Origin: Firmicutes bacterium UBA2203
GTDB lineage: Bacteria; Bacillota; Desulfotomaculia; Desulfotomaculales; Nap2-2B
Assembly (NCBI GenBank): GCA_002327235.1
Contig: DCUX01000008.1
Span: 62,845 to 126,844 of the forward strand
DNA: 64,000 bases
Direction of reading: 5' to 3'
In this document: positions 53,689-63,207 of the stretch, piece after piece
Numbering within the stretch: position 1 is the stretch's first letter
Layout: the number at the start of each line of letters is the position of its first letter
Translations under genes and position numbers: made by a program
The notes under the pieces: generated by a model
What the model was told of the DNA's origin: nothing
Database searches by the model: none
The model's input: the letters and a program-made list of their open reading frames with translations, nothing else

Positions 53689-54747
53689 ATGCAAGTTAAA
53701 AAAAAGCAGCTGGGGAAAAAAATTCGTCAGGCACTGCTAGGAGCCTTATTGGTTTTATTTGTCGCTTCTATCTACACCCTGTACTTTTTTTACCATAAAT
53801 CCACGGTAATAGAAAAGAGCATCCCCGCTTACCGTTACCAACAAAAAGGAGAGCTTGCCTACCTGGTAAAACTTAAACCAAACAACATTTACCCGGAGCC
53901 AATCCTTGGTCCAGGAAAAACTTATTTTACCAAACTAATTGACCAGATTAACCTTTCCTTCAACTACCGGTTTAGCGGGGATAAAGCCGCGTCCTTAAAA
54001 GGGGCATACAATATTGTGGCCACCGTTGAGTCTCCGGAAATGTGGCGTAAGGATTTTGTCCTCGTTCCGCAAACGGGACTTACCACCGAAGGGAAAACAT
54101 TAACCTTTAATAAAAATTTTTCCCTTAACCTGGTTTCCTTTCACGAGTTTTTAAAAATGATTAATGAAGAATCAGGGGTAAGCGCCCGGGAACCAAAATT
54201 AATCATTAAAGCAAATGTTTATCTTAGGGCCGCCTCTAAAGAGGGGCTGGTAAATGAAGGCTTAGCTCCCACTATGATTATTCCCCTGACCTCGGGCGAA
54301 TTTAAAATTGGGGGGGAAAATTCAACTCAAAAAAGCGGTTCTCTTTCTAAAACAGTGGTAGTAACCGACCCGGCCGTAAAAAAGAAAAGAACAGCCGCTT
54401 TAATTCCCGCGCCGATGCTAGGTCTGCTTTTAATATTATTTTTCTTTTTTACCGAAAACAAATTGGGGGAAGTTGACGAAAGAAAAAAGGTTATTGATTT
54501 AATTTGGAGAAAGTACGGGGAGCGCCTGGTGAAAGTCCAGGAAAAGGTTTTACCGACAGAAAAACTAAATATCATTCCCCTTAACTCCCTGGAGGACCTG
54601 GTTAAAGTGGCCGATGAGCTGGGCAAACCGGTTATATACCAGGAAAAGGCCAACCCCGGGGATTTCCCTGTCTTGTATGTCTTTGAAAGTTCAATAGCTT
54701 TTAAGTATCAACCAGGTACGGATAAGGATATTGGTCCAGGTCATTAA
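53689..54747 (+). CDS. Two-TM membrane protein of unknown function, last gene of the TasA/SipW cluster
   Basis: 352 aa. TM1 at residues ~15-35, a ~220-aa extracytoplasmic region, TM2 AALIPAPMLGLLLILFFFF, and a ~95-aa cytoplasmic tail. I suspect but cannot verify DUF5305-type. Confidence 0.5.
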   Translation: MQVKKKQLGKKIRQALLGALLVLFVASIYTLYFFYHKSTVIEKSIPAYRYQQKGELAYLVKLKPNNIYPEPILGPGKTYFTKLIDQINLSFNYRFSGDKAASLKGAYNIVATVESPEMWRKDFVLVPQTGLTTEGKTLTFNKNFSLNLVSFHEFLKMINEESGVSAREPKLIIKANVYLRAASKEGLVNEGLAPTMIIPLTSGEFKIGGENSTQKSGSLSKTVVVTDPAVKKKRTAALIPAPMLGLLLILFFFFTENKLGEVDERKKVIDLIWRKYGERLVKVQEKVLPTEKLNIIPLNSLEDLVKVADELGKPVIYQEKANPGDFPVLYVFESSIAFKYQPGTDKDIGPGH

Positions 54748-55009
54748 CCAGCTCATCTACATTATTGAACGATTTAACTCTTCCGGCCTTTATGTCTTCT
54801 TCCGCTTCTTTCTCCCCTTTTTGCCATTCTTTTGTCCAAAACCAGGCCTGCTCCGCCGGAATAATCTTCATGGGAACAAGAATAACTTTATTATCTTCTA
54901 TCTGCACCTGAAAGATATCCCCATCGCTTAGCGGCAGGTGTTTTTTTAAAAGTCCCAAACTAACAATCCCACGCTTTTGGACCATTATATTACCGATTAT
55001 TTTACCCAT
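54701..55009 (-). CDS. AbrB/MazE/SpoVT-family DNA-binding protein
   Basis: 102 aa from MGKIIGNIMVQKRGIVSLGLLKKHLPLSDGDIFQV (swapped-hairpin barrel signature). GGAGGGA SD. Its 3' end overlaps the convergent upstream gene by 47 nt. Confidence 0.7.
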   Translation of the reverse strand: MGKIIGNIMVQKRGIVSLGLLKKHLPLSDGDIFQVQIEDNKVILVPMKIIPAEQAWFWTKEWQKGEKEAEEDIKAGRVKSFNNVDELVNDLDQYPYPYLVDT

Positions 55010-55184
55010 AGCATATCCCTCCATTCATTATTCCGTATAGCTGTTTTGCAGTTATCAATTATTCTGTTCTGCTGCAATTATAGAATAAAAGTTAGCTTTG
55101 GTCAACAGATGAAATTGAAAGATTTGCCCTTAGTAAATTATAATTTATAATGGATGTGAAGAATAGTTTAAATTTGGGGGAACT

Positions 55185-55790
55185 ATGATTTTAGAAATAG
55201 TGCAACTGCCTGACCCCAAATATGACGGCCCTACCTCAATTGAAACGGCTTTGTACGCCCGAAGGTCGGTCAGGGATTACCAGGACTTACCACTTACCCT
55301 GGCTGATGTAAGCCAGCTTCTTTGGGCGGCCCAGGGAATTACCAGCCCAGGAGGTTATAGAAATGCTCCTTCGGCCGGCGCCCTTTACCCCCTGGAGGTT
55401 TATCTGGAAGTGGGAAAGGTAAAGGAGCTTTCTGCTGGCATATACAAATACGCGCTTTTTAAACATGAACTGGCAAAACTTATAGACGGGGATAAAAGAA
55501 ATGCCTTAATTAGGGCGGCTATAGGGCAGTCCTGTGTAAAAAACGGGGCCATAAACATTATTTTATCTGCCGTGTACGAACGGGTAACCAGAAAATACGG
55601 GGAAAGAGGTATCAGGTACGTTTATATGGAAGCCGGCCACGCCGCCCAAAATGTTTGTCTTCAGGCAATTTCTTTAAGCTTAGGAACAGTAGTAGTGGGA
55701 GCGTTTAAGGATGTTGAAGTGCAAAAAGCAGTCAACATGCCTGACCAAGAGCATCCTTTATATATTATCCCGGTGGGAAGAATTAAATAG
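55185..55790 (+). CDS. Nitroreductase-family oxidoreductase (SagB-type domain)
   Basis: 201 aa. RRSVRDY, LLWAAQG, PSAGALYPLEVY segments. Confidence 0.75.
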   Translation: MILEIVQLPDPKYDGPTSIETALYARRSVRDYQDLPLTLADVSQLLWAAQGITSPGGYRNAPSAGALYPLEVYLEVGKVKELSAGIYKYALFKHELAKLIDGDKRNALIRAAIGQSCVKNGAINIILSAVYERVTRKYGERGIRYVYMEAGHAAQNVCLQAISLSLGTVVVGAFKDVEVQKAVNMPDQEHPLYIIPVGRIK

Positions 55791-56435: not shown

Positions 56436-57191
56436 TTACTTATTATTGATTCCGCAAACGGGACATCTAGGGTTTCTTTTAATTTTAAGCTTAAAAAATT
56501 CTAAATTTAAAGCATTATAGATCAAAAGCTCGCCAACTAATAATTTTCCTTGCTGTAAGATAAATTTAAGCGCTTCCGTGGCTTGAATTACCCCTATTAA
56601 CCCGGGCAGGACCCCTAAAATACCTACTTCCTTATTAGAAGAAATTGCCTCGGGCGATGAAAGTTTAGGATAGAGACAGTGGTAACAAGGCCCTACACCA
56701 GGAAGAATAGTCATGGCCTGTCCTTCAAAATTTGATACGGCGCCGTAAATCATGGGTTTTTGCGTAATAACGCAAGTCTTGTTGGTTAAATAACGGGTGG
56801 CAAAATTATCACTACAATCAACTACTAGGTCATAATTCTGGATAAGCCTTAAGGCGTTGGCGGCGGTCAGGTTTTCCTGGTAGGTGACAATTTCAATTTC
56901 CGGGTTTAAAGCCGTTAACGTTTGCCGGGCGGAAACAACTTTTGGCTCCCCCAACCGGGACGTCTGGTGTAAAATCTGGCGCTGTAAATTACTACGCTCC
57001 AAGCGGTCACCATCAACAAGGCCAATTTTTCCTACCCCGGCCGCCACCAAATAATAAGCCGCTGCCGAGCCCAAGCCACCTGCTCCAATTAATAGAACCT
57101 TGGCTTTCAGAAATTTTTTTTGCCCTTCCTCCCCTATTTCAGGAAGTATAATTTGGCGGTGGTACCTATCTTTTTGTTCTTTTGTAAGCAT
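56436..57191 (-). CDS. ThiF/MoeB/HesA-family E1-like adenylyltransferase
   Basis: 251 aa. RYHRQI, LLIGAGGLGSAAAYYL nucleotide loop, Zn-site CYHC ... CPVC. No rhodanese domain. Confidence 0.85.
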   Translation of the reverse strand: MLTKEQKDRYHRQIILPEIGEEGQKKFLKAKVLLIGAGGLGSAAAYYLVAAGVGKIGLVDGDRLERSNLQRQILHQTSRLGEPKVVSARQTLTALNPEIEIVTYQENLTAANALRLIQNYDLVVDCSDNFATRYLTNKTCVITQKPMIYGAVSNFEGQAMTILPGVGPCYHCLYPKLSSPEAISSNKEVGILGVLPGLIGVIQATEALKFILQQGKLLVGELLIYNALNLEFFKLKIKRNPRCPVCGINNK

Positions 57192-57198
57192 TATATTT

Positions 57199-57732
57199 TT
57201 ATTGTTCTAGTCCGGTAAAAATAGCATCTTCATTTTCATAAAGGGCTTTAACCCGTTGACGGGCGTCTGCTCTAACATTTTCCGCCTCTTCTGGACTTAA
57301 GTTTTGAGAAGCAATCCAATTTTCCAGCAGCCTCCCGCCTGGCGACCACATTTCCCACGTTTCACGCTCATAAAACCATGCTTTTAGATTAGCCCCGAAA
57401 TTTTCTATAATCTTCCACACTTCTTCTCTTTGCCGGTCATCACAGTAAACACACATGACACACTCTTCCATTCCCAAGTGATTTAAAGGAACCCGGTCAT
57501 ATTTAACACAAGGAATAACTCCTTTTTCAACGTAAGGGTCAATATTTTTGGCTAGAGTGTCAATCTCCGCGCGCGTTCCGGTAAGCACCCATTTCCCCCA
57601 ATGCTCTAAATATTCTTTATTTGTTAAAGGTTTTCCCTGGTAGGCAATATAGTTATGTCCGTGAAAAGCAGCCGGGTGAAAAAGAAAGATAAAATGTGAT
57701 TCTGGCCGGTCAACAATCATCTTATATCTCAA
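57199..57732 (-). CDS. Uncharacterised Cys-containing protein embedded between the Ubl and E1 genes
   Basis: 177 aa. HWGKWVL...IDTLAKNI...GVIPCVKY....EECVMCVYCDD..REEVWKIIENFG. The pattern reminds me of Bles03/DUF1917-type proteins, but this is unverified. Confidence 0.5.
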   Translation of the reverse strand: MRYKMIVDRPESHFIFLFHPAAFHGHNYIAYQGKPLTNKEYLEHWGKWVLTGTRAEIDTLAKNIDPYVEKGVIPCVKYDRVPLNHLGMEECVMCVYCDDRQREEVWKIIENFGANLKAWFYERETWEMWSPGGRLLENWIASQNLSPEEAENVRADARQRVKALYENEDAIFTGLEQ

Positions 57733-58004
57733 CCTCCCGCAATGGCCTGAATAATAGTAATTTCATCCCCATTTTTTAAAGGCGTATTTATACCTTGAAG
57801 ATAACTTATGTTATCTCCGTTAACGTAAACATTTAAATCCCCCAGCATTTCTCCCTGTTCGTTACATACTTTACCCTTTAAGCCCGAATATTGGGCTTCA
57901 AGCTGGTTTAAACAATCCGCAATATCTTTAGCTTCACAGACTATTTCGTTTCTACCCCTGGTTAAATGACATAATGAGCTCTGTATTCTAACGGTAATAC
58001 TCAT
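57729..58004 (-). CDS. MoaD/ThiS-family ubiquitin-like sulfur-carrier protein (C-terminal GG)
   Basis: 91 aa from MSITVRI... ending ..LKNGDEITIIQAIAGG-stop. AGGGGGAA SD. 4-nt overlap with the downstream gene. Confidence 0.75.
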   Translation of the reverse strand: MSITVRIQSSLCHLTRGRNEIVCEAKDIADCLNQLEAQYSGLKGKVCNEQGEMLGDLNVYVNGDNISYLQGINTPLKNGDEITIIQAIAGG

Positions 58005-58087: not shown

Positions 58088-58232
58088 AAAATTATAAATT
58101 ATAAAAATTATTTTGGCAAATTAATTTAGTAACACTTTATAACTTTTTTCCGTTTTAAAACCTTTCCCCGCTTGCTTTTTTAACTTAAAAGAAATAAAAT
58201 TTAGGGCAAAATAAGAGAGAGGCTTTAGCGCC

Positions 58233-59389: not shown

Positions 59390-61549
59390 CTAGCTAATCA
59401 TATAGCCATTAAGTTCTACGCTCAAGCGAGCGTCAAGGGCCAGCACTCCTTTATGTCCTACCAGTAAAGGATTAAGGTCTAGTTCCTGAATTTCAGGATG
59501 ATTGACGACCATTTGCCCTAGGCTAAGCAAGGAATTAACCAGGGCCTCTATATCTAAAGGAGGCTTGCCCCGAAAACCTAAAAGCAGTTGATAAGAACGT
59601 GTTTCCTGAATCATGGCCAACGCCTGGATACGATTAATGGGGACAATCCGAAAAGCAACATCTTTAAATAATTCGGTATAGATACCTCCTAGCCCGTAAA
59701 CCAAAACAGGACCAAAAACCGGGTCTTTTTTGCTCCCCAGGATAACCTCGATACTATCCGGGTTAGTTATATAAGGTTGAATAAGCACCCCTAAAACCTG
59801 TATTTTTAACTCTTGATTTAGCTCAAGGACTTTTATTTTCCTAAATGCTTTTTCTACGGCCTCAGGGCCGTTCAAGTTTAGGTAAACTCCTCCCACATCA
59901 GATTTATGGGTAACTTCAGGACTTAATACTTTCATGACTACCGGATAACCAATTTCTTCGGCCGCGGCCAAGGCCTCAGTTAAATTGTGCGCCACTTTTG
60001 TTGATACGATGGGAATATTATATGCTTGAAGCACTTCTTCCAGTTCAGGGAAATTAATGGTGGCTTTATTTTGTTTTCGGGCCGTATAAAGAATTCTTTT
60101 AACCTGATTTATCTTCTGTTCATTAAAAGCAATAAAGGGTTCGTTTTTCTCCGGGTTCTCCAGGACAGGTTTTATCTGCTGGTGGTAACGGTATAACGCG
60201 CCCAAGGCGGCCATAGCCCTCTCCGGTGAATGGTAGGCTACAATCCGGCCTGGCTTTTCTAAAATAGAGGCAAATTCCTGCCGGTAAGGACCATATACCC
60301 AAACCGCTACCGGTTTTTCGGGGTGGTTAGCGGCAGCCCGGTTAAGTAAGTCGGAGATGTTTAGTAATTTATCTTGCGCTGGGTGGAGGTATGCGGGTGA
60401 AACACAAAACACCGCGTCAACCTGAGGATCGCTTAGTACTGCCTCCAATGATAAAGAGTAAACATGATGGTATCCGTGTATCATTCCTGCCGGCCAAATA
60501 TCAGCCGGATTAATTACTTCCATCCAATCAGGAAAAACTTCTTTAAGACGGTTCACGGTAGCAGGACTAAACGAGGCTAATTTTAAGCCAAAGTTACTCA
60601 TGGCGTCAGCCGTAGCAATCCCTGCCCCGCCACTAATGGTTAAAACGGCAATCCTTTGACCTGGAATGGACTGATAAGTAAGAAAAGTTTTATTAAAAAA
60701 ACGCATTTCTTCGACATCTTGCACCCTGATAATACCACATTGCTTAAATGCCGTTTCAAAAACGTGGTCTTCCCCGGCCAAAGAGCCACTGTGTGAAATA
60801 GCCGCTTTGGCTCCTGCCTCACTGCGTCCTGTTTTTAAGCAAAAAATGGGTTTTTTGCAGCCTGCCTTTCGAGCAAGTTCCATAAACCGCCGTCCGTTCT
60901 TTATGCCCTCAATATGCAGATTTATTACTTTAATTTGAGGGTCATTGTCTAAATACTCCAGTAAATCACTTATTTCAATATCGGCCGCGTTGCCAAGATC
61001 AATTCCCAGGCCTATGCCGGCCGCAAAATCAGCCGACCCTAGAAGAAAGATTCCCGATTGACTGATCATGCAACAATTATTTTTTTGGCGGTGAAAATCA
61101 AGAAAGGAGGTGTGAAAATCAACAAAAGTGTTTACCACCCCAATTGTATTAGGCCCAATAAGCCTGGTCCCGGTACCCTGGATTATTTTACCCAGTTCTG
61201 CTTGCATCACTTGACCTTCTTTATCTCCATCCGCAAAACCCTGGGTTACCACAATTACAGCCTTAATTCCTTTAAGGACACAGTCTTTTACTACTTCTAC
61301 CACCACAGTACGTGGTGTTGAAATAACTGCTAAATCTACCGATTCCGGTAACTCTAATACCGAACGGTATAATGTCTGGCCTAATAATTCCCCTCCTTTA
61401 GGGTTAACGGCGTATATCCGGCCATTATAATTAGTTTTTATTAACTGTTCAAGAGGATTATACGCTTCTGGTCCGGTACGGGTAGTTACACCGATCAAAA
61501 CCACCGAACGAGGATTTAAAAAATAATTAATTTCATTAAGTGAAAGCAA
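59390..61549 (-). CDS. ADP-forming acyl-CoA synthetase (CoA-binding + succinyl-CoA-ligase-like + ATP-grasp domains)
   Basis: 719 aa. PRSVVLIGVT...YAVNPKG CoA-binding N-terminus, GPNTIGV, SQSG, and a C-terminal ATP-grasp (YPVVMKVLSPEVTHKSDVGGV). TTG start. Confidence 0.85.
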   Translation of the reverse strand: MLSLNEINYFLNPRSVVLIGVTTRTGPEAYNPLEQLIKTNYNGRIYAVNPKGGELLGQTLYRSVLELPESVDLAVISTPRTVVVEVVKDCVLKGIKAVIVVTQGFADGDKEGQVMQAELGKIIQGTGTRLIGPNTIGVVNTFVDFHTSFLDFHRQKNNCCMISQSGIFLLGSADFAAGIGLGIDLGNAADIEISDLLEYLDNDPQIKVINLHIEGIKNGRRFMELARKAGCKKPIFCLKTGRSEAGAKAAISHSGSLAGEDHVFETAFKQCGIIRVQDVEEMRFFNKTFLTYQSIPGQRIAVLTISGGAGIATADAMSNFGLKLASFSPATVNRLKEVFPDWMEVINPADIWPAGMIHGYHHVYSLSLEAVLSDPQVDAVFCVSPAYLHPAQDKLLNISDLLNRAAANHPEKPVAVWVYGPYRQEFASILEKPGRIVAYHSPERAMAALGALYRYHQQIKPVLENPEKNEPFIAFNEQKINQVKRILYTARKQNKATINFPELEEVLQAYNIPIVSTKVAHNLTEALAAAEEIGYPVVMKVLSPEVTHKSDVGGVYLNLNGPEAVEKAFRKIKVLELNQELKIQVLGVLIQPYITNPDSIEVILGSKKDPVFGPVLVYGLGGIYTELFKDVAFRIVPINRIQALAMIQETRSYQLLLGFRGKPPLDIEALVNSLLSLGQMVVNHPEIQELDLNPLLVGHKGVLALDARLSVELNGYMIS

Positions 61550-61644: not shown

Positions 61645-63207
61645 CTAAAAGGCAATTCTTTTAACCACGCTAATATAACCATTTTTATCTTTCTTGGCTA
61701 TATCACCGGTATAATAAAGACCCTTCATTTTGGTCCAGTACCTATCTTTATAAAGTTCCTGATTTTCATAAATTGTTCTTAGCATATACGGCCAGGGTTT
61801 TTTTATCACCAGGTATCCTTCCTCTTCAACTCCTACTTCTTTTCCTTCTTTATTTACAACCCCGGCTACAATTCCGGGGAAAGCCGTTCCGATAGAACCA
61901 GGTTTTAAGGGCATGGTTGGTAAAGTGCTAATTAAAAGCCCACCCGTTTCAATTTGCCCCCAAACATCCATAATATGACATTGTTTTTTTCCCACTGTCT
62001 TGAAATACCAGTTCCAGGTTTCTATATCTATTGGCTCGTCCATAGTGGCTAGGAGTCTCAGGCTTGACAAATCATGTTTTTCCAACCAAGCATCGCCTTG
62101 ACGCATAAGATTTTTAATATTTGAAACAATAGCGGCAAAAATATTAATTTCGTATTTTTCAACTAATGACCACCATTTATCCGGGTAAGGATAAACAGGG
62201 ATACCTTCGTAAAAGAAAATAGTTGCTCCATTTAATAAGGGACCGTACACAGTATAGGTATGGCCTGTAATCCAAGCCGGATCAGAGGTACACCAATAAC
62301 GGTCAATATCTTTTAAATCCCCAATTAACTTAGTAGTAAAATAGGCTCCAACCATATATCCACCGTGCGTATATAAATATCCGTTAAGTATGCCTGAGCG
62401 TTGGGAAATACGAGGCCGGTAAATTATAAAAAGCGGGTCTTCGGCATCCATAGCTTCGGTCTCTTCTTTACTGGTAATAATAGGTAGATTAATTAGTTCG
62501 TGATACCAATAATCACGGTTTATTTCCATATGAACATCCTGACCGGTTCTTTTAACTACAATTACCGATTTTACCGTCGGGGTTAATTTTAAGGCTTCAT
62601 CTAATACCTCCTTTTTTAGAGGAACCGTAACGCCATTACGAAAACTTCCGTCTGAGGCAATCACACATTTAGAACCGGTACTTAAGATTTGTTGTCTTAA
62701 AGTGTATGCATCCAGCCCTATATACGCTATATGGTGGATAGCCCCTATTTTAGCGCAGGCCAGCATCATTATAATTTGCTCGGGAATCTTGGGCAAAAAG
62801 ATGGTTACGCGGTCACCCTTTTTAACCCCCATATTTTTCAGAAGATTAGCACATTTATTTACTTCCCGGCAAAGAGCGTGATAACTATAAGTCCGCATTT
62901 CGCCATTTTCGCCTTCCCAAATAAGGGCTAATTTGTTGCGTTTGGGGGTATTAACATATCTTTCCACGGCATTATGAAAAATATTAACTTTTCCCCCCTC
63001 AAACCATTTATAAAAAGGAGGATTTTGGTCGTTTAATATTTTATCCCAGGGAGCGTACCAGGTTAACTCTTTAGCTATTTCTTGCCACAATTTAACCGGC
63101 TCATCCTGTGTTTCTTGAATAAGCTTTTCGTATTGCCTTGCGTTTGCTTTTTCAACTAACGATTCTGAAGGAATAAAATAACCATTTTTTTCTTGAAACA
63201 TATTCAT
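61645..63207 (-). CDS. Acetyl-CoA-synthetase-like protein: N-terminal domain only, with degenerate P-loop
   Basis: 520 aa. It aligns with AMP-forming Acs (YWCTSDPAWITGHTY, DVWGQIETGG, YYTGDIAKKDKNGY) but stops at the hinge (..VVKRIAF-stop). It carries RPRISQRSGILNG where TSGSTGKPKG is expected. Confidence 0.8.
   Translation of the reverse strand: MNMFQEKNGYFIPSESLVEKANARQYEKLIQETQDEPVKLWQEIAKELTWYAPWDKILNDQNPPFYKWFEGGKVNIFHNAVERYVNTPKRNKLALIWEGENGEMRTYSYHALCREVNKCANLLKNMGVKKGDRVTIFLPKIPEQIIMMLACAKIGAIHHIAYIGLDAYTLRQQILSTGSKCVIASDGSFRNGVTVPLKKEVLDEALKLTPTVKSVIVVKRTGQDVHMEINRDYWYHELINLPIITSKEETEAMDAEDPLFIIYRPRISQRSGILNGYLYTHGGYMVGAYFTTKLIGDLKDIDRYWCTSDPAWITGHTYTVYGPLLNGATIFFYEGIPVYPYPDKWWSLVEKYEINIFAAIVSNIKNLMRQGDAWLEKHDLSSLRLLATMDEPIDIETWNWYFKTVGKKQCHIMDVWGQIETGGLLISTLPTMPLKPGSIGTAFPGIVAGVVNKEGKEVGVEEEGYLVIKKPWPYMLRTIYENQELYKDRYWTKMKGLYYTGDIAKKDKNGYISVVKRIAF

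Follow-up and report, generated by a model that had tools for sequence, protein, structure and literature searches.

Here, we analysed a 64,000-nucleotide stretch from the genome of Firmicutes bacterium UBA2203 (contig DCUX01000008.1), a member of the Desulfotomaculia, which is referred to as the window in its full length. On its minus strand (58004..56436), three co-directional genes encode a ubiquitin-like carrier protein of the MoaD/ThiS type, a protein that we call X, and an E1-type activating enzyme. The trio hints at an unrecognised helper system for toluene- and alkane-attacking glycyl-radical enzymes. One neighbouring gene is oriented divergently and the other convergently; hence, the trio constitutes an operon of its own. 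A sequence-only reading of this DNA had described a tightly coupled three-gene operon, of which the trio itself and its common orientation turned out to be real, but most likely not the overlap and the length ascribed to the middle protein. All 37 aligned homologues of X (37/37) start at an internal ATG (MIVD...), and the last codons of the carrier gene form the motif GGAGG 9 nt upstream of this ATG at 57720. Translation of X thus most likely starts at 57720, which gives a protein of most likely 173 instead of 177 aa and most likely replaces the proposed 4-nt overlap of carrier and X by an 8-nt spacer. A start at the alternative TTG codon (57732) is unlikely. The 7-nt gap between X and the E1 gene was given correctly, and the operon indeed harbours no JAMM, MoaE or ThiG gene. 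Residue numbers of X used below refer to the 177-aa numbering of the alignments.

Table 1 Coordinates of the carrier-X-E1 operon and of neighbouring features in the window.
Feature	Position	Strand	Basis
MoaD/ThiS-type ubiquitin-like carrier, 91 aa, C-terminus AIAGG	57729..58004	-	Pfam ThiS, TIGR01687
X, 173-aa Bles03-like protein, 'orfY' family of bss clusters	57199..57720	-	Homologue alignment, Shine-Dalgarno-like GGAGG
MoeB/ThiF-type E1 adenylyltransferase, 251 aa, four zinc-binding Cys, no crossover-loop Cys	56436..57191	-	Pfam ThiF, PRK05690, alignment
Promoter-like site TTGCCA-17-TATAAT in front of the carrier gene (by pattern only; the region holds 11 of these sites versus 5.0 expected)	58091..58119	-	Consensus scan, 11/12 matches
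ADP-forming acyl-CoA synthetase, 719 aa (CoA_binding + Succ_CoA_lig + ATP-grasp_5), just upstream of the trio	59390-61549	-	
AMP-binding ligase, 520 aa, just upstream of the trio	61645-63207	-	
Open reading frame of 107 aa, downstream of the operon's convergent neighbour	54701-55024	-	
Nitroreductase-family gene, downstream of the operon's convergent neighbour	55185-55790	+	

The carrier matches the beta-grasp profiles of the ThiS/MoaD type (Pfam ThiS PF02597: 4e-13, 50.1 bits, cut-off 22.5; TIGR01687 moaD_arch, the archaeal-type MoaD: 51.6 bits, cut-off 49.5), ends in Gly-Gly (AIAGG) and is the sole ThiS-family match above the cut-off in the genome of the organism. Among 69 carrier open reading frames (ORFs) linked to X, the C-terminus reads GG in 42, AG in 23 and differs from both in four. 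An E1 is encoded in the same locus in all 23 cases of AG-type carriers (23/23) versus 14 of the 42 GG-type ones, and a quick tree places AG-type carriers in at least three separate clades. This co-variation of AG tails with the E1 indicates, at the level of sequences, that C-terminal activation of the carrier matters. On a Dehalococcoidia contig (locus L064:1370-3252), three tandem copies of X follow a MoaD-E1 pair, and the carrier ends in GA instead of GG or AG.

The E1 belongs to the ThiF family (Pfam PF00899, 3e-79) and to the MoeB subfamily (NCBIfam PRK05690, 281 bits, cut-off 266), with the glycine motif (GAGGLGS) and the two CxxC zinc motifs (CYHC, CPVC) of MoeB/ThiF-type enzymes. In an alignment of 41 E1s, the only conserved cysteines are the zinc ligands C169, C172, C243 and C246, each present in 40 of the 41 sequences. 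In conjugating systems, a Cys in the crossover loop serves as the thioester site of the E1. A Cys occupies this column in the second E1 of the genome (contig C2), whereas the catalytic loop Cys of conjugating E1s (UbaA, Uba4 and the eukaryotic type) was not found in any of the E1s adjacent to X. Among the E1s from X loci, it is present only in those of two loci (L037 and L067), both of which are located kilobases away from X. With only the zinc cysteines kept and the loop Cys missing, the dedicated E1 looks like a pure adenylyltransferase. Such a Cys-less enzyme would fit the MoeB mode of action better than a thioester cascade.

X contains the motifs HWGKWVL, VIPCVKY and EECVMCVYCDD. It is not matched by any Pfam or NCBIfam family, in line with the initial impression that the middle protein fits no named family. 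A word-indexed search retrieved 181 relatives at E<=1e-3, all annotated as hypothetical and none with a Pfam domain, and a profile search of 1.84 billion representative sequences yielded 167 clusters at E<=1e-3, of which 20 reached E<=1e-30. By these sequence comparisons, X is a member of a small conserved family without a name. An alignment of 38 sequences (X of the window and 37 homologues) shows W45, G46, K47, K77, D79, C97, W106, W119, W129, P131 and G132, among others, to be invariant. After addition of 40 more distant representatives, only K47 and K77 were still invariant, while G46, Y96 and W119 were kept in at least 90% of the sequences. The label 'Cys-rich' that X had been given is an overstatement: it has four Cys, and C97 is the only one invariant in the 38-sequence alignment. 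Even this residue is not invariant in the wider superfamily, where its column holds C, A, S, G or T.

But, in which genomic company does X occur? One genome per prokaryotic species was scanned, which revealed 85 places with a relative of X, 80 of which were kept; ORFs of at least 70 aa from these 80 loci were clustered and the cluster representatives were scanned against Pfam. Since many of the loci lie on short contigs, a missing neighbour does not amount to absence. The most frequent neighbour is a MoaD/ThiS-like gene (68/80 loci), followed by a MoxR ATPase of the AAA_5 type (BssE) and a von Willebrand factor A (VWA) protein of ~575 aa (BssF), each in 45 of the 80 loci and at least one of them in 48. 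ThiF-type E1s were found near X in 39 loci, PFL-like glycyl-radical enzymes in 23, DUF4125 proteins (BssG) in 20, BssB in 16, DUF4037 proteins in 15, atypical short-chain dehydrogenases/reductases (SDRs) in 14, the activating radical-SAM enzyme in 13 and Amidohydro_3 proteins in 10. The neighbourhood check shows a strong co-conservation of X with the MoaD-like gene; in 57 of the 68 loci, at most 100 nt separate the two (carrier gene upstream in 44, downstream in 13). Adjacency of the two genes occurs in either order and in at least five phyla. In two proteins with continuous sequences, X is naturally fused to products of such neighbours, namely to DUF4125/BssG (P0161, 397 aa) and to a BssF-like VWA_CoxE/VWA part (P0167, 754 aa).

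Several hosts of X are known, or likely, to degrade hydrocarbons anaerobically, among them six Aromatoleum species, Desulfosporosinus sp. Tol-M (whose contig carries the label bssA), Desulfobacula, four Desulfosarcina species and Peptococcaceae BRH_c4a. The genomes of Aromatoleum toluvorans and A. toluclasticum encode a MoaD/ThiS family protein between BssG and the X homologue. An exact-sequence look-up identified the homologue of Azoarcus sp. CIB as AzCIB_4511 (AKU14398), two accessions after BssG (AKU14396). For strain CIB and A. toluclasticum MF63, a published study describes the gene order bssG-orfX-orfY-bssI, with orfX and orfY of unknown function and co-transcribed with the bss genes (PMC5874301). 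The position of AzCIB_4511 matches this order and thus identifies X as orfY and the MoaD-like gene as orfX. According to the same study, cells no longer grew on toluene after a bssF disruption with polar effects on bssG, orfXY and bssI, while a disruption of bssJ did not abolish growth (PMC5874301). In toluene-grown Magnetospirillum sp. 15-1, all bss products but BssP were detected (PMC7285207). The branching of 77 X sequences in a quick tree departs from taxonomy, as would be compatible with a transfer of the gene together with catabolic clusters.

We further examined co-occurrence in a sample of 151 genomes drawn evenly from the class of the window. X gave 13 strong and five weak partial matches, and the BssF of the window's genome, used as query, gave 14 matches, five of them only 30-35% identical. 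Strong X matches and BssF were found together in 11 genomes, which span four families, X only in two, BssF only in three, and neither in 135. The weak X-like matches of ~134 aa in five genomes of the class were set aside as members of the wider superfamily and not of the trio module; one such locus was inspected. There, a 130-aa weakly X-like ORF (E ~1e-10; genome G144, locus L095:4956-5348) lies between genes for a dynamin-like GTPase and a DUF815 AAA ATPase, and neither a carrier nor an E1 is encoded nearby.

The assembly of the window's own genome comprises 2.21 Mb in 55 contigs and is 96.6% complete. It encodes one PFL-like enzyme of 836 aa with a glycine-radical domain, which is 38-41% identical to BssA-type enzymes over 667-825 residues. 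Its gene (contig C4:2917-6641, locus L083) is preceded by those of the large and the B12-binding subunits of a methylmalonyl-CoA mutase; behind it come an ORF of 78 aa that contains Cys, two genes of the PNPOx-like type and, at the end of the contig, an IS110 transposase. BssE and BssF are encoded on another contig, and homologues of DUF4037, DUF4125, SDR and SPASM radical-SAM proteins on others. The association of X with the glycyl-radical enzyme, BssE and BssF, which is seen at the loci of the X family, is therefore genome-wide and not local in the case of the window. From its gene content, the organism seems to degrade hydrocarbons by way of alkyl- or aryl-succinates, with accessory genes that are either scattered over the genome or were split by the assembly. 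The best DNA matches to the stretch are labelled as hydrocarbon metagenome; they perhaps stem from the source sample and are not independent support. No RNA data set containing the stretch was listed.

Two genes just upstream of the trio code for an acyl-CoA synthetase and an AMP-binding ligase (Table 1). Relatives of the two were found near X in three and five other loci, respectively, from different lineages, and the two enzymes may activate succinate adducts. The small ORF and the nitroreductase-family gene on the other side of the operon show no evident link to the trio.

The structure of X was predicted confidently with AlphaFold2 from the family alignment (mean pLDDT 92.4, pTM 0.88). The top three rows of a Foldseek search against the PDB are chains of 1ZTP, the human protein Bles03/C11orf68 (E 1.0e-3 to 2.9e-3, probability 1.00, TM 0.39-0.41); no match had an E value below 1e-3. 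Next in rank are OspF and VirA/SpvC, both phosphothreonine lyases (E 1e-2 to 3e-2, TM 0.27-0.29), and then many eIF4E/4EHP entries. A search independent of Foldseek (VIA) likewise placed 1ztp first (Z 7.2, rmsd 4.8, 117 residues, 19% identity), ahead of eIF4E (Z 6.1-6.2), CutA-like proteins over part of the model and the lyase domain of a class III lanthipeptide synthetase (Z 5.8). Language-model neighbours of X, obtained independently of structure, were clusters carrying the Pfam family Bles03 (PF08939; 15%, 94% and 22% of members, scores 0.93-0.95). Among 50 distant relatives, three had sub-threshold PF08939 matches (18.5-21.3 bits, cut-off 23.1). The early hunch that X resembles Bles03/DUF1917 proteins hence holds at the level of remote similarity. 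The best sequence or profile matches of X to solved structures were a small subunit of Rubisco (E 0.0015) and, at E 0.06, phosphodiesterase 2; both were taken as chance. Khater and Mohanty proposed, in silico only, a common fold for Bles03, SpvC-type lyases and the lyase domains of LanL, together with a shared Lys/Lys/Tyr site (in Bles03 K128, K159 and Y175, as well as K204) (PMC4159009). K47, K77 and Y96 of X show a similar spacing and may be equivalent to this site.

Relatives more distant than the family proper (~135 aa; 50 profile matches scanned against Pfam) were found fused to TIR domains (8), effector-associated domains (5; EAD1/7/11), nucleotidyltransferases (2), a Macro domain (1) and PD-(D/E)XK nuclease domains. 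Such fusions of distant Bles03-like relatives are represented by the proteins P0199 and P0240-P0300. Given these varied fusions, the core domain of X appears to be a widely reused binding or catalytic module, and the pattern suggests an additional role of the Bles03-like domain in conflict or signalling systems of bacteria. A term search of a paper on conflict systems (PMC7159879) gave no mention of Bles03, eIF4E or MoaD.

We then turned to the predicted complex of X and the carrier, computed with both family alignments. Three runs scored 0.79, 0.78 and 0.80 (median 0.79), compared to 0.12 for the best control; the mark of 0.79 is reached by 116 of 157 solved complexes versus 2 of 215 mismatched pairs. 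At least 98% of the contacts agreed between runs, and the pLDDT of the partner was at least 87. On the side of X, the confident interface comprises residues 47, 49, 51-52, 86-90, 92, 94, 115-120, 124-125, 128-129, 134-135 and 138, including the conserved residues K47, K117, W119 and W129. On the side of the carrier, it comprises residues 6, 8-10, 58, 60, 62-65, 81, 83 and 85-91 and thus the whole C-terminal tail. The carrier's C-terminal tail is predicted to bind directly on the conserved lysine-bearing sheet of X. As the contacts on strand 91-98 name residues 92 and 94, but not 97, strand alternation suggests that C97 probably faces the helices and not the carrier, although X residues missing from the contact list are only uncertain. 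Cys-based catalysis via C97 was kept as a minority view only. No solved structure is known in which a Bles03-like protein is bound to a ubiquitin-like one; the predicted binding is thus unlikely to reflect a memorised structure.

What, then, might the trio do? We give an even chance to the following interpretation: the trio is a self-contained accessory module of carrier, E1 and Bles03-like protein that serves the organism's X-succinate synthase, the fumarate-adding glycyl-radical enzyme, and belongs with the accessory proteins BssE (MoxR ATPase), BssF (VWA) and BssG (DUF4125). From the computed linkage, co-occurrence, fusions, fold class, predicted binding and missing E1 cysteine, we infer how adenylation, the fate of the tail and the target may be connected. 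The Cys-less MoeB-type E1 would adenylate the C-terminal glycine of the MoaD-like carrier. The carrier would dock on X, sheet against sheet, such that its activated tail comes to lie on the concave, lysine-bearing face (K47, K77, Y96) of the Bles03/eIF4E-like sheet. X would then use or pass on the activated C-terminus, most likely as a thiocarboxylate sulfur donor, similar to MoaE and ThiG with their carriers; alternatively, the acyl group might be conjugated to a protein. As the target, we envisage the glycyl-radical enzyme itself or the small iron-sulfur subunits that belong to it.

Several points weigh against this interpretation. The trio of the window is located neither beside the glycyl-radical enzyme nor beside BssE/F, which are encoded on other contigs. 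In 23 of the 80 X loci, an E1 but no BssE/F is present within ~6 kb, and some of these loci lie among housekeeping genes. In the class sample, two of the 13 genomes with strong X matches (92% and 94% complete) have no BssF match, and the co-occurrence table overstates the association since kin are not independent. The fold matches are modest (no Z>=8, best Foldseek E 1e-3, TM ~0.4), best Z scores of 7-8 are common even for models without a true match, and none of the 38 members of the X family (0/38) matched Pfam Bles03 (PF08939) at E up to 1. The score of the predicted complex expresses model confidence and is not a measurement. Neither a sulfur acceptor nor a conjugation target was identified. 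The solved structures of benzylsuccinate synthase are not known to show a modification that would need a system of this kind. The polar bssF disruption is the only genetics found and does not separate the downstream genes (PMC5874301).

Among the alternatives, ubiquitin-like conjugation survives best, and we consider it rather unlikely. X would be a non-canonical E2/E3-like factor or the first target, and the carrier would tag the glycyl-radical enzyme for remodelling by BssF (VWA/MIDAS) and BssE (MoxR ATPase). X and the carrier are linked to this MoxR/VWA pair, and X is sometimes even fused to it; as eukaryotic parallels, the MIDAS domain of midasin binds UBL domains and Rpn10 is a ubiquitin receptor with a VWA domain. 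The terminal Gly of the tail is conserved and dedicated E1s are present, but the X-adjacent ones lack the loop Cys for an E1 thioester. No sulfur-acceptor enzyme was found among the scanned neighbours, which would suit conjugation, but the loci also contain no JAMM or other deconjugase, nor does the genome at the Pfam cut-off. C97 is invariant, albeit within the X subfamily only, yet it probably points away from the carrier according to strand periodicity and the contact list. While the predicted binding of X and carrier does involve the tail, no UBC-like fold was among the top 50 fold matches, which is not an exclusion.

Clearly speculative, and in our view somewhat less probable than conjugation, is the proposal that the trio is a protein-directed maintenance system: X might be a Bles03/phosphothreonine-lyase-like enzyme, which uses the E1-activated carrier tail to chemically service the glycyl-radical X-succinate synthase, either by re-installing a cysteine via dehydroalanine with thiocarboxylate sulfur or by tagging the enzyme for BssE/BssF remodelling. 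If true, the re-installed residue would be a damaged active-site or cluster-ligand cysteine, and in either case no earlier ubiquitin-like system would have been devoted to a radical enzyme, nor any activity assigned to the Bles03 family before.

We regard it as improbable that the trio is an alternative molybdopterin synthase, in which X replaces MoaE and moves the thiocarboxylate sulfur to cyclic pyranopterin monophosphate in an aromatic pocket. The gene order MoaD-X-MoeB mimics moaD-moaE-moeB, and the genome encodes MoaA, MoaC, MobB, two MoeA and a tungstate/molybdate-type ABC transporter, but no MoaE match was found in it; even when 18 MoaE-like ORFs from its class were turned into a search profile, the best E value was 1.4. 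ThiG and Prok-JAB gave only weak matches below the cut-off in the genome. However, MoaE is missing throughout the class, irrespective of whether X is present (of the 151 genomes, 143 have MoaC, 130 a ThiS-family match, 32 Pfam MoaE and 18 X), for which reason X was rejected as a general MoaE substitute. A MoaE match is likewise missing in 14 of 50 X-bearing genomes, but the other 36 do have one. Where MoaE would be expected, both molybdenum-cofactor clusters scanned (genome G000, the window's own, contig C35:209-2926, locus L123; and genome G055) carry a small MOSC-domain protein of 145-150 aa after MoaA-MoaC and before MobB, which may be the missing molybdopterin-synthase partner. The trio's carrier is the only ThiS/MoaD gene here, and the same applies to seven other X-bearing genomes of the two nearest genera; hence, it may do double duty there. 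MoaD is placed in MoaE much like the tail in the predicted lysine pocket, and the eIF4E-like fold binds a guanine-type ring; X nevertheless matches no MoaE profile (PF02391 or the class-specific one). Furthermore, no molybdenum-cofactor gene (0) was detected among 50 neighbour proteins scanned from X loci, and neither the fusions of X with BssG and BssF nor its embedding in bss operons fits a housekeeping cofactor enzyme. Geobacter metallireducens is reported to have lost or never had moaE, while moaD and moeB are present (PMC2700814). This species is not among the 80 kept X loci of the 85 found, and in 81 sampled Geobacteraceae genomes X gave one strong and one weak match. Finally, we hold little hope for the view that X is a nucleotide- or ligand-binding regulator without carrier chemistry, linked to the carrier and E1 by co-regulation only while these perform ordinary sulfur-carrier duty: the sensor-like fusions of distant relatives (TIR, effector-associated, Macro, nucleotidyltransferase), the resemblance to cap-binding eIF4E and the many invariant Trp residues of X would suit it, but not the tight adjacency, which is kept in at least five phyla and with both gene orders, the tail binding predicted with high confidence, the co-variation of AG-type tails with a dedicated E1 or the two superfamily-invariant lysines on the sheet contacted by the tail.

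The anaerobic degradation of toluene, xylenes, methylnaphthalene and alkanes begins with fumarate-adding glycyl-radical enzymes, and the roles of conserved genes in their operons (bssE-L, orfXY) have been open for about twenty years. With the accessory-module interpretation, orfX, orfY and the dedicated E1 become readable as a carrier system of the ubiquitin-like type, in which the partner protein is of a new kind. The step beyond the sequence-only reading is the recognition of X and the carrier as the orfY/orfX pair of bss-type clusters, with or without an E1 of their own. Through the pair, the function of the Bles03 family, including the uncharacterised human protein, may moreover be approached from the bacterial side. 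We found no paper linking bss-type clusters with MoaD/ThiF-type proteins in a literature search from which subscription journals, including reviews of these enzymes, were mostly absent.

Compared to known systems, the trio resembles MoaD-MoaE-MoeB in its MoaD-type carrier with a Gly-Gly tail, its MoeB-type E1, the tight linkage of three genes and a partner predicted to take up the tail near conserved lysines. In contrast, X has no sequence match to MoaE, finds its best fold matches in Bles03 and eIF4E instead of MoaE, and is linked to glycyl-radical clusters instead of molybdenum-cofactor genes. The archaeal SAMP/UbaA and the Thermus TtuB/TtuC systems combine sulfur transfer and conjugation. 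The carrier reaches 50.5 bits on the SAMP1 profile (cut-off 60) and the E1 297 bits on that of UbaA (cut-off 450); unlike in these systems, the E1 has no loop Cys, no JAMM/TtuA-type partner is encoded nearby and a new third component is present. Bles03 (1ZTP), a protein without proven activity, is the best structural match of X, which conserves Lys, Lys and Tyr on its sheet, whereas the X family stays below the Pfam threshold and the structural scores are modest. No Bles03-family protein is known to work with a ubiquitin-like carrier. The closest counterpart is the orfX-orfY pair of strains CIB and MF63, which likewise consists of an X homologue and a MoaD/ThiS gene, the Aromatoleum proteins being 52-54% identical to X of the window. 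Their pair resides inside the bss operon and has no adjacent E1, while the pair of the window forms an isolated operon together with a dedicated E1.

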